A stretch of DNA of 64,000 nucleotides from the IMG/VR virus record IMGVR_UViG_3300025502_000013. The stretch is one strand, 5' to 3'. This document shows, piece after piece, positions 1-32,907 of the stretch; position 1 is the first letter of the stretch, and the number at the start of each line of letters is the position of its first letter. The translations under genes and the position numbers were made by a program. The DNA comes from an uncultured virus (IMG/VR IMGVR_UViG_3300025502_000013) (Duplodnaviria; Heunggongvirae; Uroviricota; Caudoviricetes). A model generated the notes under the pieces. The model made no database searches. It saw nothing but the letters and a program-made list of their open reading frames with translations, and had not been told where the DNA came from.

Positions 1-2
1 AG

Positions 3-371
3 ATGCAGCACGACAAGGAGAACGAGAAGCCACTCAGGGAGAAGTACGACAAGGAGTTGGAGGCTTGGACTCAGAAGGTCAAGAAGTACGCTCTCACCAT
101 GCCCAAGCCTAAGGACATGGACATGGTTGGGGTTGGGGGAGGCTACTACCACCGTACTGGCTCGGGCAACCCTGAGGATATTACTGTTCAAATAGTCCTT
201 GCGGTTCCGGCTAATAAGGTTCCAGAACGCCCCGAGGCTCCTGACGCTGTTGCGGCTTGGCAGTACCGTGATGCGGTGGAGAACATTGAGAACGCGCTCC
301 GGTTGCTCCGTATGACCGACCAAGAAGAAATCAGCACGGGTACTTACAGCAAAATTGCTCAGTACCTCTAA
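3..371 (+). CDS. Hypothetical protein, probably 5'-truncated by the window edge
   Basis: ORF ends just before the first terminator/promoter unit. Confidence 0.75.
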   Translation: MQHDKENEKPLREKYDKELEAWTQKVKKYALTMPKPKDMDMVGVGGGYYHRTGSGNPEDITVQIVLAVPANKVPERPEAPDAVAAWQYRDAVENIENALRLLRMTDQEEISTGTYSKIAQYL

Positions 372-494
372 CGGCTGGACAGCCCCTCACTACGGTGGGG
401 GTTGTTCGCGTAAAAAATATCGGGCACGGTCTATACAATAAAGACATACCGACACCGAGTAAAAGGCTGGGTGCGGTCTACTGAGGAGGTAGTA

Positions 495-824
495 ATGATT
501 ATCGAGAGTGCGGTCAGGGATAGTTCCCTGGAGTTGTACCTGGACAATGCTCACGGCATTGCCTTTGACACCTGCCACAAGATTTATGTCTTGATGGACA
601 GCGAGCAGATGGGTCTGATGCGGGAGTATGAGTATGACCCTTTGATTTCTTCAGACGAGATGACACCTGCCGAGATGTACGAAACGGTGGCTGGCTGGTA
701 CGAGGAGTCTTGCCAACTGCGGTTTATCCAAGCCGTCACCACAGCCCCAGATAACCCCAACGAGGGCTATGTAGATATAGTTCCCCAGTTCCTACTGTTC
801 AACGAGGACGAGGACGAGGACTGA
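495..824 (+). CDS. Acidic hypothetical protein
   Basis: GAGGAGG RBS before ATG 495; fills one cassette. Confidence 0.85.
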   Translation: MIIESAVRDSSLELYLDNAHGIAFDTCHKIYVLMDSEQMGLMREYEYDPLISSDEMTPAEMYETVAGWYEESCQLRFIQAVTTAPDNPNEGYVDIVPQFLLFNEDEDED

Positions 825-918
825 TAAGGAGAGTGCCCCTCTACGGAGGGGTACTTTCCGTAAAAAGTGGCGTGGTGCGCCGATACAATAAAGACACGGA
901 CAGCAAAGGAGGACAATT

Positions 919-1101
919 ATGTCTGAAAAAGTGACGGTGGCACACCTGCCTACCTGTAACTTCTGTACCAACCTGGCAGGATATGACGCTAGGACGGTGT
1001 TAGGCGCGTGGGCTTACCTATGCGAGGAACATTTCTACCCCATGACCGAGGGACGGCTTGGGACTGGCTACGGTCAGAAACTAATCCTGGAGGAGGCATG
1101 A
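919..1101 (+). CDS. Small Cys/His (zinc-finger-like) protein
   Basis: AGGAGG RBS; CNFC and CEEH motifs. Confidence 0.85.
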   Translation: MSEKVTVAHLPTCNFCTNLAGYDARTVLGAWAYLCEEHFYPMTEGRLGTGYGQKLILEEA

Positions 1102-1244
1102 TGGCAATAGTAGTTAGGCGCTACGGCGTTACACCAACACGCGCCGGTCTGGTATCGACCTGCGTGGAGTGTGGGAGAGTATTCGACCTCACCGATGAAA
1201 CTGACGCTAACGAGTTAGCCTACGGACACGACTGCGAGGTGTGA
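1098..1244 (+). CDS. Small zinc-binding hypothetical protein
   Basis: GGAGGAGG RBS, ATGA overlap with the previous gene; CVEC and HDC motifs. Confidence 0.8.
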   Translation: MMAIVVRRYGVTPTRAGLVSTCVECGRVFDLTDETDANELAYGHDCEV

Positions 1245-1342
1245 GTGACACGGCACGCCCCCTCTCCGGAGGGGGTGCTGTCGTTGTCCCGTAAAAAATT
1301 GGGAGTAGTGGGAATAAAATAAAGGTATCAACGGGAGGAGGA

Positions 1343-1519
1343 ATGATGATATGTCAATACTGTAATGAGAACCCTGTCCGGGAAGGCTGGGCTATCACCT
1401 GCGCCGTGTGTACTTTCATGTGTACACGGTGCAAGGAGGACACACCCTACGAATTAGGAGTGTCCTGGGATAGGTACTGTGACCCCTGCGGTGTTGCGGT
1501 GGCTTCTGTCCCATTCTAA
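1343..1519 (+). CDS. 58-aa protein with four CxxC motifs (not in ORF track)
   Basis: GGAGGAGG RBS; translates MMICQYC...CAVC..CTRC...CDPC...; fills one cassette. Confidence 0.8.
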   Translation: MMICQYCNENPVREGWAITCAVCTFMCTRCKEDTPYELGVSWDRYCDPCGVAVASVPF

Positions 1520-1638
1520 GCGACTCCCCCTCTCCGGAGGGGGTTTCGCCGTTCCGTAAAAAACATGGAGGGGGGCTTATACAATAAAGACATGACGGGG
1601 GGACACTAGGGCTTTCCGCATAACCTGAGGAGGACACC

Positions 1639-1977
1639 ATGGGTGACCGTTCGAATATCGCGATTGTCTACCACACCGGAGAAACTATCTACCTGTACGG
1701 GCATTGGCTCGGGCATGAAAGTCAGAGGATTGTCGCACGCGCAATTTCTGAGGGCAGGCGAATGGAAGACGAGTCTTATTTCGCTCGGATTCTTTTTAGC
1801 AAAATGATTGCTGAGGACATTGCCGGCGAAACCGGCTTCGGTATCGCACCGTATGAGGTAGACCAGGACTACGGCAATCCCACAGTTACCGTGGATTTTC
1901 GTGACCACACGGTGATGCACGACAACTGGGATAACGCTGTCCCGTTCGCTGACTACCCCCGGCTAGTACTGGTATAG
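1639..1977 (+). CDS. Phage hypothetical protein (MGDRSNI...YLYGHW type)
   Basis: Strong RBS; fills one cassette. Confidence 0.85.
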   Translation: MGDRSNIAIVYHTGETIYLYGHWLGHESQRIVARAISEGRRMEDESYFARILFSKMIAEDIAGETGFGIAPYEVDQDYGNPTVTVDFRDHTVMHDNWDNAVPFADYPRLVLV

Positions 1978-2091
1978 CCTGACGGGAGCCCCTCACTTCG
2001 GTGAGGGGCTACCCCGTTCCGTAAAAAATTGGCTACGGCATGGATACAATAAAGACAACAGCAGGGGAAATACCCCTACGGGAGGAGAGTC

Positions 2092-2427
2092 ATGGATACG
2101 GCTACGGTAGTAGGATTGGTGGCTACTACACCACGATATGTAGAAACTATTGACGGGAAGCGTGTTTTATCTTTTCGTCTGGCGTGCCCTCAGAAGGGTT
2201 ACGACAGGGACACCGGCGAGTGGGTGCCTAAAGACACAAACTGGTACACGGTGCTGTGCTTTGACGATGTAGCAAGCGACTGTGTCGACAGGGTTGGCAA
2301 GGGGAGTCGGATTGTTGTAGTTGGTAATCTGATGAAAGTCACAGATTGGTCTGCTGACAGCCCCTCGGGTACTTCGGTAGAAATACACGCCCACACCCTG
2401 GGTAACCTGGGGAAGAACATATCCTAA
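2092..2427 (+). CDS. ssb: Single-stranded DNA-binding protein-like OB fold lacking the acidic C-terminal tail
   Basis: TVVGLVATTPR, SFRLA, YDRDTGEW, TNWYTV and KGSRIVVVGNL match actinobacterial SSB motifs. Confidence 0.8.
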   Translation: MDTATVVGLVATTPRYVETIDGKRVLSFRLACPQKGYDRDTGEWVPKDTNWYTVLCFDDVASDCVDRVGKGSRIVVVGNLMKVTDWSADSPSGTSVEIHAHTLGNLGKNIS

Positions 2428-2519
2428 CGGTAACCCCCTCTCCGGAGGGGGATTACCCGTCTCCGTAAAAAATCACACGGTGCTTCGGTACAATAAAGAT
2501 ATGGAAAGGAGGTCAGCAA

Positions 2520-2723
2520 ATGTCTGACATAAAATACCCTGAGGTGGAAGTAGAACTGGTAGGACAGGACGGCAACGCGTTCGCTGTTATGGCAAGAGTG
2601 AGCAAGGCTCTCCGCCGGGCTAGTGTGGCTCAGCAGGAGATTGACGAGTACCTCAAGGAATCTACCTCTGGGGACTACGACCACCTAGTGGCAACCGCCA
2701 CCCGGTGGGTTACGGTTCACTAA
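2520..2723 (+). CDS. Conserved small phage protein (LVGQDGNAF...SGDYDHL family)
   Basis: AAGGAGG RBS; motif recognised from phage hypothetical proteins. Confidence 0.85.
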   Translation: MSDIKYPEVEVELVGQDGNAFAVMARVSKALRRASVAQQEIDEYLKESTSGDYDHLVATATRWVTVH

Positions 2724-2851
2724 CCCCACACGGCACTAGCCCCTCTTCGGAGGGGTTATTGTCGTCCGTAAAAAATGCGGTGAGGACACCATACAATAAA
2801 GACATAGACAAGGAGGCACTAGAACTCTTTGCTATAACCTGAGGAGGAACT

Positions 2852-3073
2852 ATGTACGAGGTCGAGACCAGAATGGTCATAACCACACCACGGTGTCCCG
2901 AGTGCGGAGAGGCTGGCATTCTCCAAATCCCGGCAGACGGCTACGACCGCTGGGCAGAGGGTGCGCTTATTCAAGAAGCCTTTCCCAACCTTTCCCTAGC
3001 CCTTAGGGAACAACTGAAGACCGGCTATCACGGCGCTTGCTGGGATACGGCTTTTGGACCCGTCCCTTTTTAG
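2852..3073 (+). CDS. Small Cys/His hypothetical protein
   Basis: RBS; CPEC, LIQEAFPNLS...RE.LKTGYH..CWD. Confidence 0.85.
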   Translation: MYEVETRMVITTPRCPECGEAGILQIPADGYDRWAEGALIQEAFPNLSLALREQLKTGYHGACWDTAFGPVPF

Positions 3074-3202
3074 CCCCACACGGCAATTCCCCGGCTTAGG
3101 CTGGGGTTTTGTCGTCCCGTAAAAAATGAGGGAACACGGGAATATAATAAAGACATAGACACCAAGCAAAAGGCTTAGTGTCACTACCCTGGAGGAGTAC
3201 CT

Positions 3203-3478
3203 ATGAGTACACGGGCAAAGGTAAGGGCAAAAGTCCTTGCAGATGGTGGGACCTTTGAGGAGGGCTACACCGGCTGGGCAAGCGACACCTACTGGGTCGA
3301 GGTAACACTCTCCGATTCAGAAACGGTGTGGGCTTGTGAGGCGACAGAGTACGACAGCCTCTGGACCCTGAGGGTCGAGCAAGAGGATAGCGAAACTCGC
3401 GCTCAGATGTGGAGCTATGTCTGGGACAAGGTACGCTTTCCCGTAGTTCGCCGTGATAGCTTCTCACAAGCTGTCTAA
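3203..3478 (+). CDS. Hypothetical protein
   Basis: GGAGGAG RBS; fills one cassette. Confidence 0.8.
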   Translation: MSTRAKVRAKVLADGGTFEEGYTGWASDTYWVEVTLSDSETVWACEATEYDSLWTLRVEQEDSETRAQMWSYVWDKVRFPVVRRDSFSQAV

Positions 3479-3603
3479 CCCCCAAGCCCCTGTCAGAAAT
3501 GGCAGGGGTTCCTGGGGTGCCGTAAAAAAATTCTATCGAAGGTCGTACAATAAAGACAACGGCACACGGGGTACGCCTGTGAGCCACTACCTGAGGAGGC
3601 ACT

Positions 3604-3717
3604 ATGAGTGACAACCCTTTCGACAACCTGGACATTATCAACCAGGACGCGATTGACGCGATGGATGACGAAACCGTCAAGACGGTTTGGGAAATCCTTA
3701 CCAAAGCCGGCTACTAG
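3604..3717 (+). CDS. 37-aa acidic peptide (not in ORF track)
   Basis: GAGGAGG RBS; MSDNPFDNLDIINQDAIDAMDDETVKTVWEILTKAGY. Confidence 0.75.
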   Translation: MSDNPFDNLDIINQDAIDAMDDETVKTVWEILTKAGY

Positions 3718-3774
3718 GCGAGAGAGGGCGGGGAAACCCGCTCTCTCCCCCTACCCCAACAGAAAGAGGAAAGA

Positions 3775-4002
3775 ATGTTAGAAAGAATTACACGGGTAAA
3801 TTACTACTGGAAAGACACGGTAATCCCTGGAGATACTGACGCACAAGTAGTTATCCTGAACGATAGCGACAAGTACGAACAAATGTCTAATGATGGAAGT
3901 TTCGATGAGCGTATCTGGTTCTACTTTCAGAATGAAGATGAGTTCCAACGAGCCTTTGACCCCGCTAACACGGAGTTCGAGTTCGTCCTCACCGGAGGAT
4001 AG
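3775..4002 (+). CDS. Acidic hypothetical protein
   Basis: GAGGA RBS; ends before a terminator. Confidence 0.8.
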   Translation: MLERITRVNYYWKDTVIPGDTDAQVVILNDSDKYEQMSNDGSFDERIWFYFQNEDEFQRAFDPANTEFEFVLTGG

Positions 4003-4143
4003 GTTTTCCTCCCAGGGAAAAAGCACAAGCCCCGCCATTTCTGGCGGGGTTTTGTGTGTCCGTAAAAAGTTAGGGGACACGGGGATACAATAAAAACATC
4101 AGCACGGAACAAGCGGTGTTCTGTGTCTAACCCTGGAGGAACT

Positions 4144-4299
4144 ATGTATTACTTTGTTACGGTTATAGAAAAAGCCTCACGAGAGATTGTGGCGACTTAT
4201 CTTGACGCCTTTGAGTCTGACGCTCACGAGAGGGCTCAGACCATTGGAACCATTGAAGGCTACGCGGTGTTCATTACTAGTGGTGACCCACTCTCATAG
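4144..4299 (+). CDS. 51-aa hypothetical protein (not in ORF track)
   Basis: GGAGGA RBS; MYYFVTVIEKASREIVAT...; fills one cassette. Confidence 0.75.
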   Translation: MYYFVTVIEKASREIVATYLDAFESDAHERAQTIGTIEGYAVFITSGDPLS

Positions 4300-4425
4300 C
4301 AACTAGGGGAGCCCCAGCTTAGGCTGGGGTTTCTGCTGTCCGTAAAATTCGATCGACACGGACGATACAATAAAAGCACAGACAGGGACACAAGGTTTCT
4401 GTCCTAACCCTGGAGGATAGCAATT

Positions 4426-4614
4426 ATGCGTTCACACGATGGATTGGCAGAATGGGCTTTGGAACAAGCCACCACACGGGAGCAAATTGCTCACCACATC
4501 GAGCGTTTGCGCGATGATGCCCTGATGATTCACGACTACCCCGAGCAGGCTATCGCCTTTATCGAGGACGAACTCCGTGAGATTCGGGTGCTACTGGCTA
4601 GGGATTCAGACTAG
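4426..4614 (+). CDS. Hypothetical protein
   Basis: GGAGGA RBS; fills one cassette. Confidence 0.8.
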   Translation: MRSHDGLAEWALEQATTREQIAHHIERLRDDALMIHDYPEQAIAFIEDELREIRVLLARDSD

Positions 4615-4731
4615 CCAGACACGGAACCCCTCTCCGGAGGGGTTTCGGTCGTCCGTAAAAATCGATCGAAGGACGGAATACAATAAAAACATCAGCACGG
4701 AAATACCGGGCGATTGCTGGGAGGAGTGGCT

Positions 4732-4938
4732 ATGCCCACTTTGGTTGTCACGGACACCAACAAGATTGGTGTCGATGGTTTGGTGGAAAGGCTTGCCGAC
4801 CACATCATTATGGTAGTCGATAGGCGCGGGTATGGTGAGCAGGACAATGTCCACACCATCACGCTTGCCGACACCATTCGCAACACGGAGGCGCACGGGC
4901 TTGCCTGTCGCCTAGGGTTTCTCGCCCACATCGAGTAG
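4732..4938 (+). CDS. Hypothetical protein
   Basis: GGAGGAG RBS before ATG 4732. Confidence 0.8.
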   Translation: MPTLVVTDTNKIGVDGLVERLADHIIMVVDRRGYGEQDNVHTITLADTIRNTEAHGLACRLGFLAHIE

Positions 4939-5068
4939 CCCTGCCCATACTGTCCCCTCTCCGGAGGGGATAGTGTGCGTTTGCTGTCCGTAAAATTCGA
5001 TCGAAGCACGGAATATAATAAAGACACAAGCACACGGGAACCCCTGTGGCTTACCTGAGGAGGAACTA

Positions 5069-5152
5069 ATGAGTGAAAATATGTGTTCAGGCTGTGGCGA
5101 TATCTGCCGGGCAAGTGAATCAAAGTGCGGTATCTGTAGAGGGGGGTGGTGA
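5069..5152 (+). CDS. 27-aa Cys-rich peptide (not in ORF track)
   Basis: GAGGAGG RBS; MSENMCSGCGDICRASESKCGICRGGW. Confidence 0.65.
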   Translation: MSENMCSGCGDICRASESKCGICRGGW

Positions 5153-5155
5153 GAG

Positions 5156-5332
5156 ATGGGCATCACGGAAATGTTCCAACTGATTCGCCAAGTCTGGTCA
5201 GACTCTATGTCAGACAATGGCGCTATCTGGGAACGCTCTAACGCGGAACTACAGAATGCTAAGGCTAACTACCCCGACCTGTACGAAGAAGCCCTGGCTA
5301 TGGCATACGAGGCGAGTGTGAATCAACGATGA
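5156..5332 (+). CDS. 58-aa hypothetical protein (not in ORF track)
   Basis: Bridges the previous peptide and the 5329 ORF with an ATGA overlap. Confidence 0.7.
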   Translation: MGITEMFQLIRQVWSDSMSDNGAIWERSNAELQNAKANYPDLYEEALAMAYEASVNQR

Positions 5333-5532
5333 GCCAGACACCAGACACGGCTTATGGGGTAACGCTCAGTTTCACATTCCACGAGCCACGGAACAAGACA
5401 CGGGAAGAAGCCGAGCGCTTTATCAACGAGTATGTGAGCAGACTCGCCGAGAATGACGAGAGTGACCTACCCGAAGTCCGATGGGACGATGTGGAGTGGA
5501 ACATCGTGGAACTACTGCCAGAAGCACAGTAA
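5329..5532 (+). CDS. Acidic hypothetical protein
   Basis: Translational coupling; ends before a terminator. Confidence 0.8.
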   Translation: MSQTPDTAYGVTLSFTFHEPRNKTREEAERFINEYVSRLAENDESDLPEVRWDDVEWNIVELLPEAQ

Positions 5533-5661
5533 GCCACAAGCAAGCCCCTGGCGAGAGCCGGGGGTTTTGCTGTCCCGTAAAATTCGATCGAAGCACGGAA
5601 TATAATAAAGACATAGCACAAGGGCACAAGGTCCTAGTGCTCTAACCCTGAGGAGAAAGAA

Positions 5662-5982
5662 ATGCTGAAAGAGAAACTGACCACACTGCCGGAGTTGTAC
5701 AGCACGGACGAGACGAAGGGCGACCTGCCTGCTGTTTATGTGTTCACACCAGACGCTGGAGCGACCTGGGTGCTTTGGGAGTACAGCCCCGAAGAAGGAC
5801 TGGCGTTCGGGCTGTGCGACCTGGGCTTGGGCTTTCCCGAGATGGGATATGTCTCAGTCCCCGAGTTGGAATCACTACGCGGTAAGTTTGGCTTGCCTGT
5901 CGAGGTAGACACCAGCGTCACCACACGGTTCCAGGGCTACGAGAAGGCTGGAGTGTCGACCCCTGAGTACCTGATGGCTTGA
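5662..5982 (+). CDS. DUF2958-family protein
   Basis: FTPDAGATW and AFGLCDLGLGFPEMGYVS..ELE..RG..GLPVE.D signature. Confidence 0.85.
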   Translation: MLKEKLTTLPELYSTDETKGDLPAVYVFTPDAGATWVLWEYSPEEGLAFGLCDLGLGFPEMGYVSVPELESLRGKFGLPVEVDTSVTTRFQGYEKAGVSTPEYLMA

Positions 5983-6091
5983 GAGCCGTACCCCCCAGCC
6001 CCCACTCCGGTGAGGGTTGGGGCAGTGTGCTCGTAAAATTCGATCGAAGCACGGGTTATACTAAAAACATCACAAGGGAAAGGAGACAATA

Positions 6092-6244
6092 ATGTCTTAC
6101 ACTTACAAAATAGTGTTTGTGATAATCACCCTGGGAGTGGTACTCTCTTTCCACGACACCTACTGGCCTTGGGCTATGGTTCCTCTGGTGCTTTCGGCAC
6201 TGGTTGGCGCTATTGGGCTCAGGCTCGGGGGTCGAGGAAAATAA
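6092..6244 (+). CDS. 50-aa protein with two predicted membrane segments (not in ORF track)
   Basis: AAGGAG RBS; two hydrophobic stretches and a basic C-terminus. Confidence 0.75.
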   Translation: MSYTYKIVFVIITLGVVLSFHDTYWPWAMVPLVLSALVGAIGLRLGGRGK

Positions 6245-6386
6245 GTTTTCCTCCCAGGGGAAAAGGCAGACCCCCTACTTCGGTAGGGGGTTCTGTCATT
6301 CCGTAAAAAAGACATAGCACGGAGAATATAATAAAGACATAGACAGGGAGACAAAAGGGCTTTCTGCTATAACCTGGGAGGTCATT

Positions 6387-6596
6387 ATGGCTAAGCAGTT
6401 TCGAGTCCTCGCAAGCAAGTCGGGCTTCAAGACGTTCGACTTCACTTATGACGCACACGAGGAGTCATACGCTCGCAAGGTCGCTAACACACTGAGCGAT
6501 GAAAATTGGTCAGTGTGGTTTGAGACCCTCGATGACAAGCACCAGAGTGCGGTCATCAACGACCTAGACTTTGTCTTCGGCAAGACACAGTTCTAA
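6387..6596 (+). CDS. Hypothetical protein
   Basis: GGGAGG RBS; fills one cassette. Confidence 0.8.
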   Translation: MAKQFRVLASKSGFKTFDFTYDAHEESYARKVANTLSDENWSVWFETLDDKHQSAVINDLDFVFGKTQF

Positions 6597-6729
6597 GGCG
6601 CACGGCAGACCCCTGGCTTCGGCTAGGGGTTTTGTCGTTCCCCGTAAAATTCGATCAACACGACTTGTAGAATAGAGATATCACAGAGAGACACTAGGGC
6701 TTTCTGGATATCTGGGAAGGAAACAAATT

Positions 6730-6921
6730 ATGTATCAGGTAAAAATCTTTACACACAGAGATGCCTCGCTCTTCGCCGAGTCTGAGACGTTCCAGACTAG
6801 GGAGGAAGCCGATGCCTACGCCACGTCTGTTGGCACGGGAGAGGGCTACTGGACCGAGATTCACCACTCGCAGGCGGTGTGGAGCAACTTCACATCACAC
6901 GAGAGGCTTGCCCACCAGTAA
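6730..6921 (+). CDS. Hypothetical protein
   Basis: RBS; fills one cassette. Confidence 0.8.
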   Translation: MYQVKIFTHRDASLFAESETFQTREEADAYATSVGTGEGYWTEIHHSQAVWSNFTSHERLAHQ

Positions 6922-7044
6922 GCCCTCACCCCAGGACCCCACTTCGGTGGGGCTTCTGGCATTCCGTAAAATTCGATCGACCCTAGGAATACAATAAAGA
7001 CATAGACAGCAGGGAAATGCCCTGTGTCTACCTGGGAGGCACTA

Positions 7045-7266
7045 ATGGCTCACAACTACAAGGTCAATGGCTGGTTCGGTTCTACCACGGCAGGGTGGCG
7101 TATCGCCCTGGAGCCTGCTTTCTTCGAGGACATCGAGGAGGCACGGCTCTATGCCCAGGGACTCCACCTAGCCAATCAGGAGGCTAACACGGAAGCCTAC
7201 GAGGTCGAGGTCTTCAGACTTCGGGAGCGAGGTCTTGCTCTCCGAGTCCTGGAGTACAGCGCCTAG
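7045..7266 (+). CDS. Hypothetical protein
   Basis: GGGAGG RBS before ATG 7045. Confidence 0.8.
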   Translation: MAHNYKVNGWFGSTTAGWRIALEPAFFEDIEEARLYAQGLHLANQEANTEAYEVEVFRLRERGLALRVLEYSA

Positions 7267-7349
7267 GACTACCCCAGGGACCCCACTTCGGTGGGGTTTC
7301 TGGAGTTCTTGCGCCGTAAAAATCCCGGAGTGAGATTGGTACAATGGAA

Positions 7350-7440
7350 CCACACCACAAGGGAGCACAGGGCTCCTCGCGGAGCTCTCCACGAGAGCAA
7401 GCTCTAGCTCATCACCAGGACCCCACTTCGGTGGGGTTTC
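7350..7440 (+). ncRNA. Candidate ~90-nt small RNA from an ORF-less cassette
   Basis: Intact promoter at 7315-7345, two hairpins and a terminator at 7418-7440; no start codon between them. Confidence 0.45.
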
Positions 7441-7516
7441 TGGCGTTTATAGGTTTTTACGATAAAGGTGTGTAGGGTAGTGGCAACTAACTAATATTTA
7501 TTTCTAGGGGGGAATA

Positions 7517-15868: not shown

Positions 15869-17698
15869 GTGGGCATATACACTCGAGGCGAGTCTGATGA
15901 CTCCACCCCGACTCCCCCAAAAGCTAAAAGCCAGGGCATCAGGACCTCCGGCAAAAACAGTTCCCGGTCTACTCAGTATGTAGTCAACAAAAAAGTTCCG
16001 CAGCCTTCGGCATTCTCTAATCTTTTCATTGCCAACTCTCCAGCGTCGTCTGTTCCCTATAACTACCCTCGCTCGATGACAGCGGCTGCTGCTCAAATGA
16101 AGGTCAACGACCGCGCTGAGTTTGAGCAGTTTAAGTCTCGCCGCTCCGCTTCTTCCAGCGCTTGGCAGTCTGAGGCCTGGGAATATTACGACGCAATCGG
16201 GGAAATTAAATACGCTTTTAATCTTGTTTCATCAGTAATCTCCAGAATCCGCATTTATTCAGCAACTGTTGACGACCCCAGCCAGGCTCCCATCTCAGTA
16301 CACGAGTCTGGAACAATTGAAGCCAACCTTGCTTCTGCTGCAGAGCGTGCTCTAGCCCGTCTTAGCTCTGCGTACGGCGGACAGGCTGGTCTTTTGAGAG
16401 ACGCCGCCTTGAACATCTCTGTCACAGGTGAGTGCTATCTCGTCCAGTTCCCAGCTCGCATTGGCTCCGGGGAACCAGAGTCCTGGGACGTAAGATCCGT
16501 TGATGAAGTCCTTCCTGACTCTAAAGGTAACTTTGCTGTAGCCGGACGCCGTGAGCAGCTTAGTGGCCAGGGGGCTTCTCAGGGAATGGGACTGTACCCA
16601 CTTCCTAAGTCAGCTTTTGTTGGGCGCATTTGGCGATCACACCCTCGCTTTTCCGATGAAGCAGACAGCTCCTTGCGCGGTCTTCTTGACCTGTGTGCTG
16701 AGCTTCTTTTGCTCAACCGCACATTCCGTGCAACAGCTCGTTCACGTCTTAACGCCGGTGCTCTCTACCTGCCAGACGGACTTTCCGTTGCCGCCCAGGC
16801 TGACCCTAACTACCCCTTTGATGATGAAGATGGCATGGGCGCTTCGTTTACACCTGAAGAGGCAGAAGACGAGTTCGAAGAGCAACTGATTGACGCAATG
16901 ACGACCCCCATCAGGGATGAAGAGTCTGCAAGCGCCGTTGTTCCTTTGATTATCCGTGGACCTGCCGAGCTTGGTGACGCAATCAAGCAGTTCAAGTTTG
17001 AGCGTTCCTTCGACCCAGCACTGGCTGAGCGTTCGGACCGCGTCCTTGAGCGCATCATGCAGGGCCTTGACGTTCCTAAGGACGTCGTTTCGGGAATGGC
17101 GAACGTTAAGTACTCCAACGCCCTACAAATCGACGAGAGCCTCTACAAGGCGCACATTGAGCCTTTGATGCTTCTTATTGTCGACGCGCTTACGGCTGTC
17201 TACCTTCGCCCCTACCTTATTGCTCAGGGGTACCCAGAAGTTGACGTAAACCGTCTTGTTGTTTGGTATGACCCCAGCGCTGTCTCTACTCGTAATGACC
17301 GAGCAACAGACGCAGACGCAGGGTTTGACCGGGGAGCAATCAGTTACGACACCTGGCGACGGGCTCATGGCTTCTCCGACCAAGACGCACCCAAGCCTAC
17401 CGAGGTAGCCCTCCGGATGCTCCAAGAGCGCGGAGTTATCACGCCTGAGCTTACCGAGGCACTTCTTGGTGTGGTTGCGCCTGATGTCATGGAAGCGGTC
17501 CGTGGTGCCTCTCAGGGCGCTTCCGCAGGCCCCATCCCCCCTGAGCTAGAGCAAATACTGCAACAGGCAGCTGGCGGAGCCCCCGCAGACCCGGCTGCTG
17601 AAGAGTCAGAAGCTCCGGCAGCTCCCCAGGAGGAATCACCCGGAGCGCAGGCCGGGCAAGAGCCTCCAGGCCTGGGTATTCCCGAGGTAGCCCCGTAA
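15869..17698 (+). CDS. Portal protein
   Basis: WQSEAWEYYDAIGEIKY, RIWRSHPR..EADS and SAVVPLII motifs of actinophage portals; position at the start of the head module. Confidence 0.85.
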   Translation: MGIYTRGESDDSTPTPPKAKSQGIRTSGKNSSRSTQYVVNKKVPQPSAFSNLFIANSPASSVPYNYPRSMTAAAAQMKVNDRAEFEQFKSRRSASSSAWQSEAWEYYDAIGEIKYAFNLVSSVISRIRIYSATVDDPSQAPISVHESGTIEANLASAAERALARLSSAYGGQAGLLRDAALNISVTGECYLVQFPARIGSGEPESWDVRSVDEVLPDSKGNFAVAGRREQLSGQGASQGMGLYPLPKSAFVGRIWRSHPRFSDEADSSLRGLLDLCAELLLLNRTFRATARSRLNAGALYLPDGLSVAAQADPNYPFDDEDGMGASFTPEEAEDEFEEQLIDAMTTPIRDEESASAVVPLIIRGPAELGDAIKQFKFERSFDPALAERSDRVLERIMQGLDVPKDVVSGMANVKYSNALQIDESLYKAHIEPLMLLIVDALTAVYLRPYLIAQGYPEVDVNRLVVWYDPSAVSTRNDRATDADAGFDRGAISYDTWRRAHGFSDQDAPKPTEVALRMLQERGVITPELTEALLGVVAPDVMEAVRGASQGASAGPIPPELEQILQQAAGGAPADPAAEESEAPAAPQEESPGAQAGQEPPGLGIPEVAP

Positions 17699-18750
17699 TG
17701 GCAGACCCAAAAGAGGTATACGCAGCTCTTCACAAGACTGAAGAGCTTCTTGCCGAGATGCGCAAAGAGGCCCGGGAGCTTTCTACTAAGAAAACGGGAG
17801 CAGGAACCCCGGCTCCTAAGAAAGATCGGGTCAAGGGGTCTAAGAAAAACCCCAAAGGTTCTGCATCCGGGGATAAAAAAATTACTTTTGACGCCAAAAC
17901 TGAGACAGCCATTAAAAACAAGGTTGAAGAGCACAACAAGACCGCTAAAAAGGGCCGTAAGGCCACCACAAGGATGCTCAAGGCAGTCTACCGCCGTGGA
18001 GCTGGTGCCTACAGTACCTCACACCGCCCCGGAAAGACTCGCAATCAGTGGGCAATGGCTCGAGTAAACGCTTTCCTCAAGCTTTTGCGCTCTGGAAAGC
18101 CCTCCAAGGCTGCTTACACTCAGGATAACGACCTTCTTCCCGCTGCACACCCTAAGTCTTCAAAGAAAAGCGCTTCTACCCTTACTGCATCGGGGCTGAT
18201 ACCCGAAGAGCAAGCCTTAGCAGATGCTTTGGCGGAGGTTGTAGCAGTCCACGGCAAGTTTGACCAAGACGGTGACGGCGTTTGGGCGGGCTACACTCCC
18301 GCAAACGAAAACGAAGACGCCGCAATTGGCGTTAAGTGTTCAAACTGCGTTTTTTACCAAGGCGGAGACCAGTGCGGAATCATCAGTCTCAGTGTTGAAC
18401 CAGAGGGCAAGTGCCGCTTTGCTGTTTTGCCCGAGGGGGCCGTCCAGGGAGACAAAGTCCCCCTTCGAGACCCCGAGTCTCTCGATCTTTTGCTTGCCTC
18501 TGCGGACGCTTCCGGCGAGTTGGCCATCTCACTAAAGGACTATTCAGAGTATAATTCTGTAGAAGAAACAGTCATCGCTTTAACAGAGGCTTCGGGTATG
18601 GGATACGACGCAGAATTTGCCATTAAGGCGGCTTGGATGCGTGCAGTTAGAAACGGAGAAGACCCGTTTGAGCGGGCAAAGCAGCTTGCGCTAAACCCCG
18701 CTGGTAGCCTTGATGTACACCTTCTTCCTGCAGACTGGGAGGACAGGTAG
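17698..18750 (+). CDS. Head-associated protein: basic domain (LKAVYRRGAGAY..SHRP..WAMARVN) plus a 4-Cys domain
   Basis: Motif recognition; CSNC...C...C cluster. Confidence 0.65.
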   Translation: MADPKEVYAALHKTEELLAEMRKEARELSTKKTGAGTPAPKKDRVKGSKKNPKGSASGDKKITFDAKTETAIKNKVEEHNKTAKKGRKATTRMLKAVYRRGAGAYSTSHRPGKTRNQWAMARVNAFLKLLRSGKPSKAAYTQDNDLLPAAHPKSSKKSASTLTASGLIPEEQALADALAEVVAVHGKFDQDGDGVWAGYTPANENEDAAIGVKCSNCVFYQGGDQCGIISLSVEPEGKCRFAVLPEGAVQGDKVPLRDPESLDLLLASADASGELAISLKDYSEYNSVEETVIALTEASGMGYDAEFAIKAAWMRAVRNGEDPFERAKQLALNPAGSLDVHLLPADWEDR

Positions 18751-21700
18751 TGTCTGATAATATTCCCGTCTCCCCCCTTAACTATCACGGTTCCTTCGAG
18801 GACGAGAATAATCAAATTATTGACGCGGCTCTGGAGTTTGCACATGATGCCAACCAGGGCTATACGGGCACCCGGGTTGCCACAGACGGAGTAGTTCTCG
18901 ACGTTGCCAGGCGGACTCTCCGGGAACTAGACAACCATCCTTTCTCTGTTCGTAAACATCTTACTTTGACAGATGTTTCTCACTTTATTGTTTTGCTTCA
19001 GAAAGACAAGGCTGTTACCGCCTCGGTCCAGCACACCGATCTTCTCCCCGTTGCCCACCCTCGGTCTTCCGCAGAGCACGAGCTGAGTAACCAAGATCTG
19101 TTCGCCGCCAAAGCCCGCTGGATTGCCGACGACCCGTCTATTAAAGACGAGGAAACTCGTGCCATGGTTGCCTCGATGCTTACGGCTCCTGAGGGCTCTG
19201 CTGAGCGCGAATATTACGCAACCAGGCTTGAGAACAGCCCCCAGGGGGCTATTCCTGTAAGAGCCTTGATTGCGGCGTTTACCGGCGGCCTAGGCGCTAA
19301 CAAGGGTTACTGGATGCGCCAGCGTCGTGACCGTAAGGGTCGCTTTGCTTTCGAGGGCGGTGGCCTTAGTGTATTGGTCAAGGGCAGCACAGGTGCTGTT
19401 CGCAGGCTGACTGGTCGTACTGTTGGTCCGGGTGTTGGTGAAAAAAATGACTATTTTGATATGGAAGTTTCTCCCGGAAGCCTTGTCCGTGTTCCAGCAT
19501 CTGCAACCGAGTCTTCTAAAGCGTACTTGCCTAGCCCAAACGCCCCGGACGGATACAGCCCTCAAAAGGCTCGGGTCCAAGCTGGCGACCCCGTCATCGA
19601 CGAAAAAGACTTAATTCGTCCTGATGCTCCCAGTGGCTTTAATAAAGTTGCCGACGGAGCTGATGTCGACTCTCCCGAGGAAAAAGAGTACTATGGCGAA
19701 GACGCCGACTTTGGTACAGTGTACGAAGACGAAAATTATACTGTCCGGCAGTTTGACTCAGGGTCTTCCCCCGTTGCCCGAGACAATTTTAACTTGGCTC
19801 AGGAAGCCGAGCAGTCTTGTGGGCTCACCGCAGCCGGTGAGGGCGATAACTGTCCGATTAAAACTAGTGGCGCTGGTGAAAACGGAAGCTTTGACCCAGA
19901 GAAGCCGGTTTTGTTTGTCAGCCGTACAGACGACGCGAGCAATCCTGACATCTTTGCGGCCTCCCAGAGCTGGGCGGACACCCTAGACTACATTCGTCAG
20001 GATGAGCCTCGGTACGAAGCCGAAGATAGACCAGCCCCTTACATCAAACTTGGTGACCCGAGTAGGCGGGATAACCTTGACCCCACTAGGCGCGAAGAGG
20101 GCCCACGCGGCCCCGATAATAGAAGAGTCGATCCACACGGCTTTATTATTCCGGATAAACCCGGCCTTATTGATGGCGGGGGAAGAGTAAGACCTGACGG
20201 AACAAGAGAGTTGCTCGAGGGGCGTCGGCCGGACAGCTATCCGATGCGCATCCCCCTCCCGGGCCCCTGGAACCCCCGCATTCCCGGCACTGGGCGAAGG
20301 CCCCGCCCCGGAGGAGGCCGCGCTCCTGGCGGAGGCGGACGCTCTCCCGGAACAGGACGCCGCTGGGGCTCCAACGGCCCTAACGAGGGCCACGCTCCCT
20401 ACCCAATCCCTGGGCGTCGTGTCTACCCCGGCGAAATTGCGGACATGCGCGTTGGATCAGAGATGGAGCAATATCTCGGAGGATTCCTTTCGACTCTCTT
20501 TGGAACAGCAAAAAAGCGACAGCTACGAAAAACTGGTGCTGACGAGTGGGTTGACCTGGAGACCGGAGAGACTTACACTAACGATCAAGTCTCAGAGATG
20601 GCCGCAACTAGTGGTAAAGATAGTTCTCCTTTTACGGGACTTGCGACAGGACCCGAGGTACGCCCCGGAACATTTACTAAAATGATGTCAGGCTCGCTTT
20701 TTAGCGAGCTTCCCACCGGCAGTGAGCTTAATGATCACCTAAGACTTTTTAACGTTATGACCCAGTTCCGCAAGGTTGGGTATAACCAGTGGCGTCGGTG
20801 GGACGGCAAAATCTTTACAGATGCTGAGGTGCAAAAAAAGAGCGGCACTATGCAGATTGACCGAGTTGGAGAATTTGGTCCTGGTAGACCCCCCGGTGGG
20901 GAAGTATCAGGAGAATCCTCTAAACCAAGACTCCCCAGAGGTCCACTGACCCCCGAAGAGCTGGCCGAGCTTCGCCCCGGATCCCTTATTTCTATACCTG
21001 GAGAAGACGATCAACCTCCTCGCTTCTTTGTAAAAGTAGGCGAAAACGACTGGCGCGAGATTGACCCAGAGAATTTTACGTCAGACCCTGCAGTTTCTTT
21101 CACTGATGAAGACATTCTCAACATGGGTAAGGACATTACTCTAGAGAAAGAGCCAGAGGCCTACGAACAGGGGCAACTAGGCATGCGTCCATCAGATCTT
21201 TCTCCTGAGGCCCTGGAAAACCTCCCCGAGGGCACAGTTGTAGGGACTTCAGATGAAGAAATTGATAACCTCAACATTCCCCGGCAGCCCTATGCGACTG
21301 AAGAGGCGTACCAAGCAGCCCTAGAAGAAGCCAAAGAGTTTTACCGCCGCAATAGGTGGCGTAAGCGTGGTCCCAACGAGTGGGTAAATGACTTTGGTGA
21401 GTTTGCTACAGACGCAGATATTGCAGACGGAAAGAAAACTCCTGGACTTATTATCTCTCTCGGCGATGAGGTTAGCACCCCCGAAGGCTACTACGATTTA
21501 AATCGAGAAGAGCTTTACACGCCTACAGGCGGCGCAGAAGGGCAAACCTCACCTGACTTCACCGATGACCCCGCAGAGCTGGCTCAACGTTTCTCAGAGG
21601 AAGAGCTGCAGGCAGCCCTTAAAGAAGCCCTCGAGAACCCCAACGGTTTTGGCTATCTAGAGTTTGCAGAAGGCGACGAGCCGGTGCCTGCAGAAGCACT

Positions 21701-24700
21701 GTACTATGCCTTGGTTCGTAAGCTCGGTGTCGATGTAGCAGATAAATTTGTCAGCGTCGTTTATGGTGAAGGGCGAGCCTTTGACGCAGAGACTGAGCTT
21801 GCCCGAGAATTCCCCGACATTCTTAGTGATGACCCAGGCAAGCGCCAGGCTGCTCTTATCGAGGCTTGGAACACCCAATGGGGGCGCTCCAAGTTTGCAC
21901 TAGATAGAGACGGAAACTTCACTGTTACCGGTAAAGACAATGACAGCATTGCCACTCAGTATCTGCTCGACAAAATCAGGGCAGAAGAGTGGGGGCAAGA
22001 GTTTCTTAACGACTTCCAAGAGGAGTATGGCGAGGTTCTTAATGACCGCACTAAGGCGGCAATTAAAGATCTTTTCAAGGCTTATCCAGGACTAGAGAGC
22101 TCCGACCCCAAAGAGCGTGAAGCCGCAGTACTCAGGGCTCTAGACGATTTAATTAGTGACGACGAATATGTTGCTGATGAAGACGGAAACATCGTTGAGG
22201 TGAGCCCCAAGACTGCGCTTACTAAACTTTTGTGGGACATGGCTCAAGAGTTTATTGGTGGAACATCCGCCCCTACTGGTAGAAAAGAAGAAGGAAATCT
22301 TCCTTCCGTGATCGAGGGGGCTTCCGAAGAGGAGAAAGCTGAGTTCGATAAAACAGGTGACCCCACTCCTTTCCTCCCTAAAGACAACCCCGAGTCCTTT
22401 GAAAACGTGTGGAACAACTACTACAACCCACTTCCCGAGCCTTATGACCCCAAAGACGGTCCTGACCAGATCAATCCGGTAAATCTTGCTCGTAAATTCA
22501 CCCCTGATCAGCTGAAAGAGCAGCTTCGCGAGGCCATTCTTGATGGGAGTGGTTACGGTGTCGTTGCTTTCGAGGGCCCCTCCGGCGAGCCCATTGAGTT
22601 CCGAGTCCCAGCCGAAGCGCTGAGGGATGCACTGCAGCTTCAGGGCGAGGATGCAAACGCCTTTATTCAAGATATTTTTAACGAAAACCTTTCACCAGCC
22701 AAGCAGGTTCAAAAACTTATTGACGAAATTGCTGACCTTAAAGCTAGGCGTGATGCGGAGACAAACTCCACGGAGAAGGGCAAACTTACTCGACAGATTA
22801 ACAAGAAGACCGCTGAGATCGGGATGCGCTATAAGGCTATTGTGGCTCTTAAAAAGCGCGAGGCCCAGCTAGACCGTCTATCCAAGCAGAGCAGCTTGTC
22901 TGACGAAGAGCGCCAGCAGGTTCTGGACAAACTTGAGCAGGTTCGAGCACGTCGGGAGCAAGAAGAAGGCATCTTCAATGGAGACCTAGAGCAGGGCGAA
23001 AGCATGACCCCGTTCGAGGAAAATGTAGATGCTGAGCTTGAGAAGTTTGACTTTGAGCAGGCCTCTACTCGTACGCCAGTCGAGCCCCCTGCAGCTGAAT
23101 CTCCTGAAACGGTAGAAAAGGATAAGCCTAAGCCCGTTGTCTCCTACAAGAGGGTAGGCAACAAAGTATTCATCAGACAGCGGACTGGTCGCGTTATCAC
23201 CAACAACCCTGAGTTTAAAGAGTTTATTAAGGAAAACGGTTTTGTCTACGACTCTAAAGTAGACAAGGTGTTTGAAATTTCTGAAATGGATGACACTGAA
23301 TTTAACGAATTTATGCGTACCGTTCGTGACCGGTTCGGTATTAGTCTTGAGCCCGAGAAGGGTCAAGAAGCCATTGACTTTGATGCCTCGCCTTCACCTA
23401 CTCCTCGCCCCGTGCCCAGCCCAGCTGAGTTTGGAAAGTCCCCCAATAGTGCGTCTATTATCGAGTCTCTTCAGCGCCGAATTGCGGATATTCAAGAATT
23501 TGTTAGAAAAAAAGTTGTCCCACTTCTGCGCTCCGATAAAAGTGACGAGAGCCGGCAGGGACAGCAGCTTAATCGCAGAGCAGAGAACATTACTCGTAAG
23601 CTTAAGAATCGGATTAGTCGTCATCAAGATGAGGCACCAGTCGGCAAGGATGCTCGTGACCCCCGTGTCCTCAACATCCGCCCTACGGACTACCAAGTAG
23701 GGGATGTCTTTGTAGACGATTTGTTCACTGTTGATCGAATTGAAGTATCAGAGCCCATCACAGACCGGCAAAGTCCCTACTTTGGTGAGCGCGAAATTGT
23801 CTACTTCGGGCACTACCCGGGTGGCGTGGAGCAAATGAAAAAGCGCCCGGAGAACTTCAGAACCGATGGAGTTTACCGAGGCTTAGGGTCACCTGCTGGG
23901 GGGGACCTGCCCGCCCTGAATTCTCCCAAGGGTGAGGAGTATCTCCCCGAGGCAGCTCGTAATCAGCCTAGAGGAAATCTGGAGCAGATTGAGCGAGAGC
24001 CTCTTGACGGCCGCGAGAGACGGAATCTTTATGGTCCTAAGCAAAGAGACTTCCCCGAAGAACACGACAAATTCCTTAGAGACTATGAAAAGTACGAAGC
24101 TGACCTAGCGGAAAGAAGGGCTAGCTGGTCTCCCCCGGCTCCTTCTGGTGAAACACGACCCACCACTACATCAGAAGGCCAAGGAGCTCCAACTCCTGGT
24201 CCTCGCCCCAAGATTGTAACCGGGTCTGACGAAGCTCAAAACTTGAAGCCCGGGGATATTACATACAGGGAAAACCCAGACGGCTCTCTTGAGTTTTTTG
24301 TTGTCCAAACTGTTGAAAACCGTAAGGTAAAGACCGGGACTAAGACTGTTACGCAGGAGGCCCCCGAAGCCCCTCAGGTCGTAGACACTGAGACGGCCCA
24401 ATCGGCTCTTGACGAGGCCGTCAGGCGCTACCCCGAGCTGGGGGAGGATGATCCGGCTAGACGGAAACGTGCGTACGCCAAACTTATCGGAGAGTTTTAC
24501 GCAGAGGCCCAGCAGGCTGGAGAAGCCCGTAAAGAAGGTAAAGACTATGTTCCACTGGAGGGCCCTTTAGGAGAGCGCTTTGGTTGGCTGCTTAGTCAGC
24601 GAGAACGAGTTGTCGCAGGTGAGCCCCTTAGTGTAGAAGAAGTGGTTCCAGGCGAGCCTCGAGAAATTGAAGAAGATGTTTTCGAAGAAAAAACATTTGT

Positions 24701-32333: not shown

Positions 32334-32472
32334 AAACTTTCTAGACAAAAAATCGGTTGAAGACTACTATTATATTGTGGACAGTGCTTTCTATGACGGA
32401 ACTGCTGCAGAAGACGTAGAGTCCGATAAAAAGTACGCTGAAGAGAATCCCGAAAAGGCGGAGGATTTATAA
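32326..32472 (+). CDS. 48-aa acidic protein (not in ORF track)
   Basis: GGAG RBS; overlaps the end of the giant gene. Confidence 0.55.
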   Translation: MIENFLDKKSVEDYYYIVDSAFYDGTAAEDVESDKKYAEENPEKAEDL

Positions 32473-32630
32473 TGGATAAAGATAAAACACCCACAATGTG
32501 GACTGAAGAGATCCTTGAAAAGTATCTCCGAGTAATCGAGCTAGCCGAAGTAGACCCAAATGTTCTTCAAGAAAGAGCAGATGCTGTTGTACCCATAGAG
32601 TTGCCAGAAGGAGAGAAGCCCCGTGAGTGA
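32472..32630 (+). CDS. 52-aa protein (not in ORF track)
   Basis: GGAGG RBS; TAATG coupling. Confidence 0.6.
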   Translation: MDKDKTPTMWTEEILEKYLRVIELAEVDPNVLQERADAVVPIELPEGEKPRE

Positions 32631-32907
32631 TTCTCCTGAAGAAAAATTAACAGATCATATGTACATTATTTATGACGCTCCCACGGGTCAAGTCACCCAG
32701 GTTAAGTACGAAACAGCTGCGCACGGGCTGTGGACCAGAATTCAAGGGGAGTGGCGGGAATTAGCTTTAGAAGATGAGAGCGAAGATTTTATGGAGCGCA
32801 GAGAAATTGCTGGAAAAAACTACCTAGAAACTCGTGACTATTTTGACGACCAAACCGAGCAAAAGATACTTACCTACGAGCCAGAGTACAGGATGTGGTT
32901 TGCTTAA
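32623..32907 (+). CDS. Hypothetical protein
   Basis: AAGGAG RBS; operon packing. Confidence 0.7.
   Translation: MSDSPEEKLTDHMYIIYDAPTGQVTQVKYETAAHGLWTRIQGEWRELALEDESEDFMERREIAGKNYLETRDYFDDQTEQKILTYEPEYRMWFA

Follow-up and report, generated by a model that had tools for sequence, protein, structure and literature searches.

A one-directional array of promoter-led cassettes with unrelated small genes in an uncultured, putatively actinobacterial phage

We analyzed a stretch of 64,000 nucleotides (hereafter the window) from the uncultured virus IMGVR_UViG_3300025502_000013 of IMG/VR and identified, at 381 to 7440, the last two thirds of an array of 28 units, all in one direction, in which a conserved scaffold of hairpin and promoter-like repeat recurs with different small genes behind it. 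The start of the window truncates this array. We lean, with moderate confidence, toward reading it as an early array of accessory genes transcribed by the host RNA polymerase from promoters with a non-canonical -35 box, similar to the PeSLs (composite promoter/stem-loop repeats) of T4-type phages and to the host-takeover module of phage SPO1.

Anatomy of the array

A second IMG/VR record, G001, was 99.9% identical to the window over positions 1-8000 (7 mismatches) and contained 28 copies of the promoter motif on one strand across 12.6 kb (17164-29793 of that record). One loose match was found on its opposite strand, and a backwards control pattern gave 0 matches. The initial annotation of this DNA had described 19 self-contained cassettes; 19 promoter copies do lie in the window, but further units precede it and the 19th copy leads no gene.

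The motif CGTAAAA-N18-TANAAT was matched 19 times on the plus strand at 409-7345, with 18 exact copies and 1 mismatch in the copy at 6032. This bears out the CGTAAA-N19-TANNNT promoter repeat first annotated. With up to 2 mismatches allowed, the whole window held 23 matches, 4 of them outside the array in the remaining 56 kb, and dinucleotide-preserving shuffles gave a mean of 3.56 matches per window, with none of 100 reaching 23. Start-to-start distances between units ranged from 265 to 587 nt. The -10 hexamer was TANAAT in 18 of the 19 window units and TATACT in the other, and it was exact in 27 of the 28 units of the full array in G001. Alignment of these 28 promoters yielded ttCCGTAAAAaa, 15 variable positions and aTAyAATAAAgAcA, with a constant distance from box to hexamer in 28 of 28 units and a conserved CA 6-7 nt past the -10 box. 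A start at the conserved A 7 nt after the hexamer would place the CCGTAAAA box at about -38 to -31, which is the position of a -35 element. Judged by its letters, the box is unlike TTGACA or any -35 consensus known to us.

Seven of the last 9 units (20-24, 26, and 27; window 4341-7000) form a promoter subclass with a near-identical spacer that contains a TCGATCGA-like palindrome, replaced by TCGATCAA in unit 26. The palindrome may be an operator or the trace of a recent promoter duplication; the TCGATCGA form includes GATC and a PvuI-type site. The promoters of units 22 and 23 were identical across the 31-nt motif, and public assemblies break exactly there. Outside the array, 2 CCGTA words and a TACAAT were found at 14150-14220, with the ATG of the ORF (open reading frame) at 14218-14715 exactly 7 nt past the hexamer. 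From its sequence, this ORF looks like a leaderless gene under a weaker version of the array promoter; leaderless geometry is common in actinobacteria.

Folding of the 50 nt upstream of the box predicted a hairpin in all 19 window units, with a folding free energy (dG) of -18.7 to -28.5 kcal/mol, consistent with the terminator hairpin that had been annotated in each unit. Across the full array, dG was at or below -12 in 24 of 28 units (median z -4.0), the first 3 units being without an upstream hairpin. The sequence 5' of the box consisted of a G+C-rich hairpin and a short T-rich tail, and an AT-rich tract was absent. The annotated 5' hairpin was predicted in 14 of the 18 coding window units, in the leader between the predicted start site and the start codon (dG -7.7 to -19.6), where it begins within a few nt of that site, whereas the units with promoters at 859, 1290, 2464, and 6032 had short unstructured leaders of 16-23 nt. 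Leaders of the full array reached a dG of -8 or lower in 17 of 27 coding units (median z -2.1). The sequence of the leader stems varied between units while pairing was kept, and in the unit 18 leader of a diverged relative (contig L083, described below), changes on both arms of the stem preserved pairing, a single case judged by eye. An ORF caller that requires a Shine-Dalgarno (SD) sequence found one of GGAG, GAGG, or AGGA type for most cargo ORFs, and the starts at 495, 4732, and 7045, which were set by eye, are preceded by GGAGG. The ribosome site that had been assigned to every unit was therefore recovered for most ORFs, but not at 5156 and 5329, the starts (also set by eye) of the second and third ORFs of the three-gene unit, where GAGAG and GAAT lie upstream and no clear SD was seen. 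The conserved boxes begin 53-87 nt upstream of the start codons.

The window cargo comprises 22 ORFs of 27-112 aa and the full array encodes 34 cargo proteins. One ORF was found in 16 window units, 2 ORFs in 2 units, 3 in 1 unit, and none in 1 unit (promoter at 7315), so the annotated range of 1-3 ORFs of 27-122 aa needed 2 corrections: the 122-aa ORF is the end of a 146-aa ORF, and the last unit has none. An all-against-all blastp of the 34 proteins gave a single weak match of 19 residues (E 0.001), which, beside the 28-promoter alignment, agrees with the earlier description of a conserved scaffold with unconserved cargo. Many products had been called acidic or zinc-finger-like, and an isoelectric point (pI) at or below 5.5 was indeed obtained for 20 of 22 window ORFs and 29 of 34 full-array proteins, with CxxC pairs in 5 of the 22. 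Pfam named 5 of the 34 above threshold, namely GP88, DUF1281_C, DUF3846, an OB fold like that of single-stranded DNA-binding protein (SSB; 2092-2427), and DUF2958 (5662-5982), the last 2 being the only ones among the 22 window ORFs. PHROGs matched 10 of the 34 (8 families without a stated function, 1 SSB, and 1 weak RecE-like) and gave 1 functional label in the window, for the same SSB ORF. Across 59 related loci, 14 of the 34 proteins had no homologue, and the others varied in position, lying on both sides of an AAA-ATPase gene that served as anchor. Orthologues on contigs about 80% identical showed 50-95% protein identity, and those of units 15 and 18 showed 77-95%, which fits real, constrained genes. 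A search for closer relatives with the cargo protein U03a returned 307 loci with a best identity of 44% and at most 1 motif copy each. An atlas look-up of the ORF at 495-824 gave a poor model and no usable lead, and a literature search for a link of DUF2958, DUF3846, or DUF1281 with anti-restriction found none, with DUF2958 and DUF3846 absent from all of the papers listed and DUF1281 named in one.

Promoter words and indels in related loci

Fifty-eight IMG/VR loci encode the AAA-ATPase adjacent to the array at 58-75% identity. We examined the layout of 14 of these, together with the named phage DSL-LC01, and most had the same layout, in which a hairpin and a repeated promoter-like word precede a ribosome site and a small gene; the top 10-mers of nearly all 58 included a promoter-like or ribosome-site word. 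The promoter words were TTCTAAAGnTGTTATAAT in DSL-LC01, CCTGATATAAT in about 10 loci, TTCCAGAGTTTATATAAT in L029 and L030, and others elsewhere. Textbook promoters of the TTGACAT-N17-TATAAT type were identified in L015, and extended -10 promoters (TGnTATAAT) in DSL-LC01, L028, and L029. In DSL-LC01 (L014, OQ999401.1; locus 16340-33333), an inverted repeat, GATTCT...AGAATC, flanks the extended -10 box; the main text of the paper describing this phage makes no mention of promoters or intergenic repeats.

A search of related genomes for the motif, proposed in the initial annotation, yielded multiple copies in 2 relatives, but none of the 58 AAA-ATPase loci contained the CCGTAAAA promoter array (at most 1 match each). 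Apart from G001 and its parent contig, multiple copies of the exact promoter were found only in L080 and L083, short contigs from another metagenome with about 75-80% DNA identity. Their 5 complete promoters keep CGTAAA, the spacing, and TANNNT, the spacers have diverged, and a sixth promoter is cut by a contig end. Three further IMG/VR records had single matches to the exact promoter; these records hold 1-2 matches, 2 of them equal to the backwards control, and we rejected them as chance. Among metagenome contigs, the exact pattern beyond its own contig and L080/L083 was found in 13 loci with a single match each. A looser pattern was searched in 185,579 species genomes, where the matches listed were all single and none was in a named actinobacterium, so that a host was neither found nor excluded.

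Differences in cassette content were identified in L083, where unit 15 stands directly before unit 18. Its alignments to window 2434-2804 and 3546-3990 overlap by 13 nt, and these 13 nt are TACAATAAAGACA, the -10 box. A segment of 741 bp (window 2805-3545), containing the cargo of units 16 and 17, is thus absent from this place in L083, with the join inside the promoter. Within unit 18, the same contig has an extra Cys-rich ORF, an indel of 160 nt located away from the promoter. We surveyed indels more widely in chained alignments of 12 pairs of related loci (78-95% identity) and obtained 29 clean indels, of which 4 had both ends within 30 nt of the promoter word of their lineage, with direct repeats of 11-19 nt, where random placement expects 0.1. 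Further, the farther apart two units lie in the array, the less identical their spacers are (Spearman -0.39; none of 2000 permutations was as low), a gradient suggesting that promoter modules have been duplicated or converted locally.

Proposed explanation, rivals, and known systems

In the explanation that we favor, each unit starts directly behind the predicted intrinsic terminator of its predecessor, with a rigid two-box promoter of the sigma-70 family made up of CCGTAAAA, an 18-nt spacer, TAYAAT, and AAAGACA, the last A being the likely start site. The host RNA polymerase with its principal sigma factor would fire all units upon entry of the DNA and produce short mono- to tricistronic mRNAs with a hairpin at both ends, which may slow 5'- and 3'-end-dependent decay, and the terminators would insulate neighboring units. 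The cargo would consist of dispensable accessory proteins for host takeover, anti-defense, or DNA handling, and the repeated scaffold of about 130 nt would offer homology for recombination that deletes, inserts, or converts cassettes. We infer the host polymerase from the canonical hexamer and start region, from the host-type promoters of relatives (L015, DSL-LC01, L028, and L029), from a scan of ORFs over 86 kb that turned up neither a phage sigma factor nor an RNA polymerase domain, and from the leaderless-type ATG at 14218.

Several results weigh against this explanation or parts of it. A scan for the sigma-70 consensus (TTGACA, 16-18 nt, TATAAT) flagged 0 of the 19 promoters, and the invariance of the CCGTAAAA box in 28 of 28 units is tighter than that of a typical -35 element and allows for a dedicated factor. 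A terminator consensus scan gave 6 plus-strand sites against a shuffle mean of 7 on both strands, and the T-tracts are weak. In Pumpernickel, a cultured Microbacterium phage, the genes are tightly packed, and nothing of this layout is seen next to the AAA-ATPase gene. As for recombination, the comparison of cassette order between relatives is divided, since L083 lacks the cargo of units 16 and 17 but L080 is colinear with units 2-4. Only 1 of the 2 indels of L083 is joined in the -10 box, and this is the sole event in this phage lineage, a small basis. In the wider survey, 10 of 29 indels had one end near a promoter word and 15 had neither, and since selection preserves intact genes, breakpoints would be expected between them in any case. 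The suggestion in the initial annotation that the repeats act as recombination points is therefore supported by the L083 join, the excess of promoter-bounded indels, and the spacer gradient, but it does not extend to the 25 of 29 indels that are not so bounded at both ends. In our reading, repeat-mediated events occur and account for a minority of gene turnover, being at best one of several routes.

One rival holds that the promoters form a private dialect, in which a specificity factor supplied by the phage docks at CCGTAAAA and the array belongs to a regulon of delayed-early or middle timing; the MotA/AsiA middle promoters of T4 are a precedent for such a factor-dependent regulon. The box would suit this rival in that it mismatches TTGACA and is nevertheless invariant, fixed in spacing, and kept in diverged relatives, and the different upstream boxes in homologous arrays of related phages are as expected from co-evolution of box and factor. 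The factor could be a WhiB-like adaptor acting on sigma-A or a protein delivered with the DNA, and the phage encodes both a WhiB-like protein (62544-63059) and a polyvalent protein of 4527 aa, a kind that may travel with phage DNA. We nonetheless regard a private dialect as unlikely, given that L015 combines perfect host-type promoters with the same architecture, that the -10 box and start region look fully host-like, and that a scan of ORFs over 86 kb, which left about 45 kb of the genome outside, detected no family of sigma, MotA-like, or AsiA-like type.

A second rival sees an ordinary early region whose repeats are alike through selection for strength, with gene turnover by illegitimate recombination and selection, promoter junctions being incidental. 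It accommodates the 25 of 29 clean indels not bounded by promoters at both ends and the 160-nt ORF indel of L083, as well as the outcome of another check proposed in the initial annotation, namely for junctions that skip cassettes: none appeared in Logan contigs from 4 DNA runs, a source in which rare variants are lost. It is less at ease with the L083 overlap, which coincides exactly with the 13-nt -10 box, and with promoter-to-promoter indels at about 40 times the random-placement expectation; moreover, neighboring units share spacer, leader, and terminator beyond the consensus, which selection for promoter strength leaves unexplained. We therefore consider an ordinary region doubtful as the full account.

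We think it quite unlikely, as a wider proposal, that CCGTAAAA is one dialect in a family of private codes, each lineage of DSL-LC01-like actinophages having 10-30 identical, homogenized promoters whose upstream box is read by a phage-supplied adaptor on host sigma-A (WhiB-like, or entering with the DNA) and co-evolves with it, while recombination between the repeats would maintain uniformity and shuffle the cargo. That the box is chiefly an operator or repressor site, like the stoperators to which repressors bind in Cluster A mycobacteriophages, is highly improbable: it is asymmetric, intergenic, and in a single orientation, and the TCGATCGA-like palindrome (TCGATCAA in one) in 7 of the last 9 units could bind a dimer, but the box lies always exactly 18 nt from TANAAT and downstream of a terminator, and no integrase or repressor was recognized in the ORFs scanned. 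Readings of the array as an integron, as miniature inverted-repeat transposable elements, or as CRISPR-like were dropped, as we found no integrase, terminal inverted repeats, or target duplications, and the repeats are promoter-like with unrelated coding cargo.

The analogies to PeSLs and to the SPO1 module drawn in the initial annotation proved apt when set against the available parts of the papers (PMC2839356, PMC4122927, PMC6873191). In T4-type phages, according to those parts, about 50 PeSLs per genome precede ORFans, indels are joined within the repeats, and mini-circles are excised (Arbiol et al. 2010, PMC2839356; Comeau et al. 2014, PMC4122927). As there, a repeat of terminator and promoter stands before small, mostly unknown genes in plastic regions and equips them with start and stop signals of their own. 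A sigma-70-like -10 hexamer, a predicted stable stem-loop, and indels joined within the repeat are likewise shared, the last from a small sample. In contrast to the PeSLs as described in these parts, the present repeats are found in an apparent siphovirus of actinobacteria, and the hairpin always precedes the promoter without ever being part of it. An AT-rich tract is missing ahead of the -35 box, which departs from the host consensus, a further hairpin occurs in the 5' leader, and the 28 units form one contiguous, one-directional row.

The second comparison is with the SPO1 host-takeover module, reportedly treated by Stewart et al. in 1998. In the portion of the literature at hand, it spans about 12 kb with 26 small genes, strong promoters and ribosome sites, and many short operons (PMC6873191). 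The array is similar in size, density, and short operons, with 34 genes against 26. Its promoters are denser, with 28 for 34 genes, PHROGs recognized no homology to the SPO1 module, and early timing and host shut-off have been shown for SPO1, whereas the array is known from sequence alone.

Our literature search found no such array in actinophages, only other, shorter intergenic motifs, in keeping with the earlier remark that this motif seemed undescribed there. Among these, the SAS and ESAS motifs of Cluster K resemble the array in that a repeated motif in one orientation precedes unrelated non-structural actinophage genes, about half of which also have an inverted repeat ahead of the ribosome site (PMC3203893, in the parts available). 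The SAS, however, is a 13-bp motif with the SD in it, only 3-7 bp ahead of the start codon (PMC3203893), whereas the promoter-like boxes here start 53-87 nt upstream, and the ESAS arms show no RNA co-variation (PMC3203893), whereas the leader stems here vary and still pair. Short conserved intergenic motifs in one orientation are also found in Microbacterium clusters EC, EG, and EI, actinophages of a related host group, but in 5-12 copies of 18-30 bp at 14-30 bp from start codons; the sections available describe no terminators or self-contained units for them, and their sequences are unrelated to CCGTAAAA-N18-TAYAAT (PMC7302621).

If the favored explanation holds, the PeSL idea that regulatory repeats both drive and shuffle accessory genes would extend to large aquatic phages of actinobacteria, and the sister lineages with their different promoter words would be a natural system for studying promoter turnover and uniformity. 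The 34 small genes would be prime candidates for host takeover or anti-defense functions in a host group with few known examples, and the units could supply insulated expression parts for actinobacteria, including promoter, 5' stabilizer, ribosome site, and terminator.

Individual units and the surrounding genome

All units lie on the plus strand. The window opens in the tail of unit 9 (1-407), where 3-371 are the last 122 codons of the 146-aa ORF and a terminator hairpin lies at about 381-404; the full ORF and its promoter are present in G001. Unit 10 (408-856) has CCGTAAAA at 408-415, TACAAT at 434-439, a leader hairpin, an ORF at 495-824 (109 aa, pI 4.1), and a terminator. The short-leader unit 11 (858-1287; promoter 859) carries ORFs at 919-1101 (60 aa, Cys-rich, phrog_23287) and 1098-1244 (48 aa), and unit 12 (1289-1552; promoter 1290 with a TAAAAT -10 box), likewise with a short leader, an ORF at 1343-1519 (58 aa, 8 Cys); a terminator follows in both. 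Leader hairpins and terminators enclose the ORFs of unit 13 (1554-2017; promoter 1555; ORF 1639-1977, 112 aa, phrog_31860) and unit 14 (2019-2461; promoter 2020; ORF 2092-2427, 111 aa), the latter being the SSB-like OB-fold protein (PF00436, E 1.2e-11). The unit with an orthologue in L083, unit 15 (2463-2764; promoter 2464), has a short leader, an ORF at 2520-2723 (67 aa, phrog_1933), and a terminator. Units 16 and 17 (2766-3518; promoters 2767 and 3118) contain ORFs at 2852-3073 (73 aa) and 3203-3478 (91 aa).

Unit 18 (3520-4058; promoter 3521) has a leader hairpin and 2 ORFs, at 3604-3717 (37 aa) and 3775-4002 (75 aa), with an internal hairpin between them and GTTTTCCTCCCAGGGRAAAA at 4003-4022 before the terminator. 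Within the second ORF, 60 nt (3904-3963) were represented in all 4 runs by short contigs that had unlike flanks and a depth about 3 times higher; this piece of the gene is shared by a more abundant relative from the same lake. GTTTTCCTCCCAGGGRAAAA is a second repeated element with a 6-bp stem, found again at 6245-6264, in both places between stop codon and terminator; it is kept in the relative of about 80% identity (L083, 1110-1130), and shuffles predict 0 copies.

A leader hairpin, an ORF at 4144-4299 (51 aa), and a terminator were identified in unit 19 (4060-4338; promoter 4061). Units 20 and 21 (4340-4986; promoters 4341 and 4654, of the TCGATCGA subclass) contain ORFs at 4426-4614 (62 aa) and 4732-4938 (68 aa). 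The three-gene unit 22 (4988-5573; promoter 4989) has a leader hairpin, ORFs at 5069-5152 (27 aa, 5 Cys), 5156-5332 (58 aa), and 5329-5532 (67 aa), and a terminator, and unit 23 (5575-6029; promoter 5576) encodes the DUF2958 protein (5662-5982, 106 aa; PF11171, E 1.8e-21) ahead of its terminator. Unit 24 (6031-6299; promoter 6032, TATACT -10 box) combines a short leader with an ORF at 6092-6244 (50 aa, hydrophobic, pI 9.8), the second GTTTTCCTCCCAGGGRAAAA copy, and a terminator. In units 25-27 (6301-7312; promoters 6302, 6643, and 6965), ORFs were found at 6387-6596 (69 aa), 6730-6921 (63 aa), and 7045-7266 (73 aa). The terminators at about 6938-6960 and 7276-7305 have a common core, CCCCACTTCGGTGGGG, with that of unit 28, the last unit (7314-7447), which consists of a promoter at 7315, about 95 nt without an ORF, and the terminator. 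The predicted RNA of unit 28 (7352-7447) folds with a dG of -42.7 kcal/mol (z -3.85; 0 of 200 shuffles equally stable), and it may be a candidate small RNA or a cassette that lost its gene. An Rfam scan of 1-16000 (E<=1) gave 4 sub-threshold chance matches and nothing for unit 28, and a tRNA scan found none.

Upstream of the array, G001 encodes M23 peptidases and a holin, and downstream the array is followed by a 152-aa ORF and an AAA+/VWA pair. Window proteins include portal (15869-17698), major head, tape measure (44810-48043), Dit, and tail proteins, along with a family-A DNA polymerase, an SNF2 helicase, and the WhiB-like protein. The nearest named relative is Actinomycetia phage DSL-LC01, a lake metagenome assembly, with 56% identity in the polymerase and 62% in the AAA-ATPase, and the next nearest are large Microbacterium, Gordonia, and Arthrobacter phages. 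By its protein content, the genome is probably that of a DSL-LC01-like siphovirus of Actinomycetia and not of a T4-type myovirus. A megablast of 381-7440 against cultured and deposited phages gave no match. The stretch is contained in 20 DNA runs labelled salt lake metagenome, and no RNA run containing it was among the 23 runs listed.

The polyvalent ORF of 4527 aa (18750-32333) has ArdC-N, zincin (MPTase-PolyVal), UvrD, and weak RNase_T domains. It lies inside the head-gene block and adjoins a 1600-aa protein with MuF-like and portal-associated PHROG matches.

Word depth on contigs spanning the array to 12306 was 72-76, 77-80, and 98-103 in runs X1, X5, and X8, and on the long contigs starting at 13285-13589, it was 41, 43, and 56, a step of about 1.8-fold. 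Depth taken from contigs is a crude measure, and the part with the higher depth extends over at least 23 kb; as a lead only, the step could mark where a long terminal repeat holding the whole array ends, or reflect a mix of strains sharing only the left part. A terminal repeat would give the array the same location as the host-takeover module of SPO1, which lies in the long terminal redundancy. Between these contigs, a direct repeat was identified at 12274-12573 and 12879-13178, with its copies 605 nt apart. They are 100% identical across no fewer than 300 nt, or about 433 nt going by the contigs. In this region (12274-13314), each copy holds a small minus-strand ORF (12481-12705 and 13086-13370), and public assemblies break there. 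Just upstream of the genes preceding the portal gene, 13400-14200 is about 800 nt of non-coding sequence with long C-runs, T-runs, and iterated AATGTCTTAGT-like words, a candidate packaging site, genome end, or origin. The AT skew is strongly negative at 12-14 kb, and GC skew is negative at 12-20 kb.

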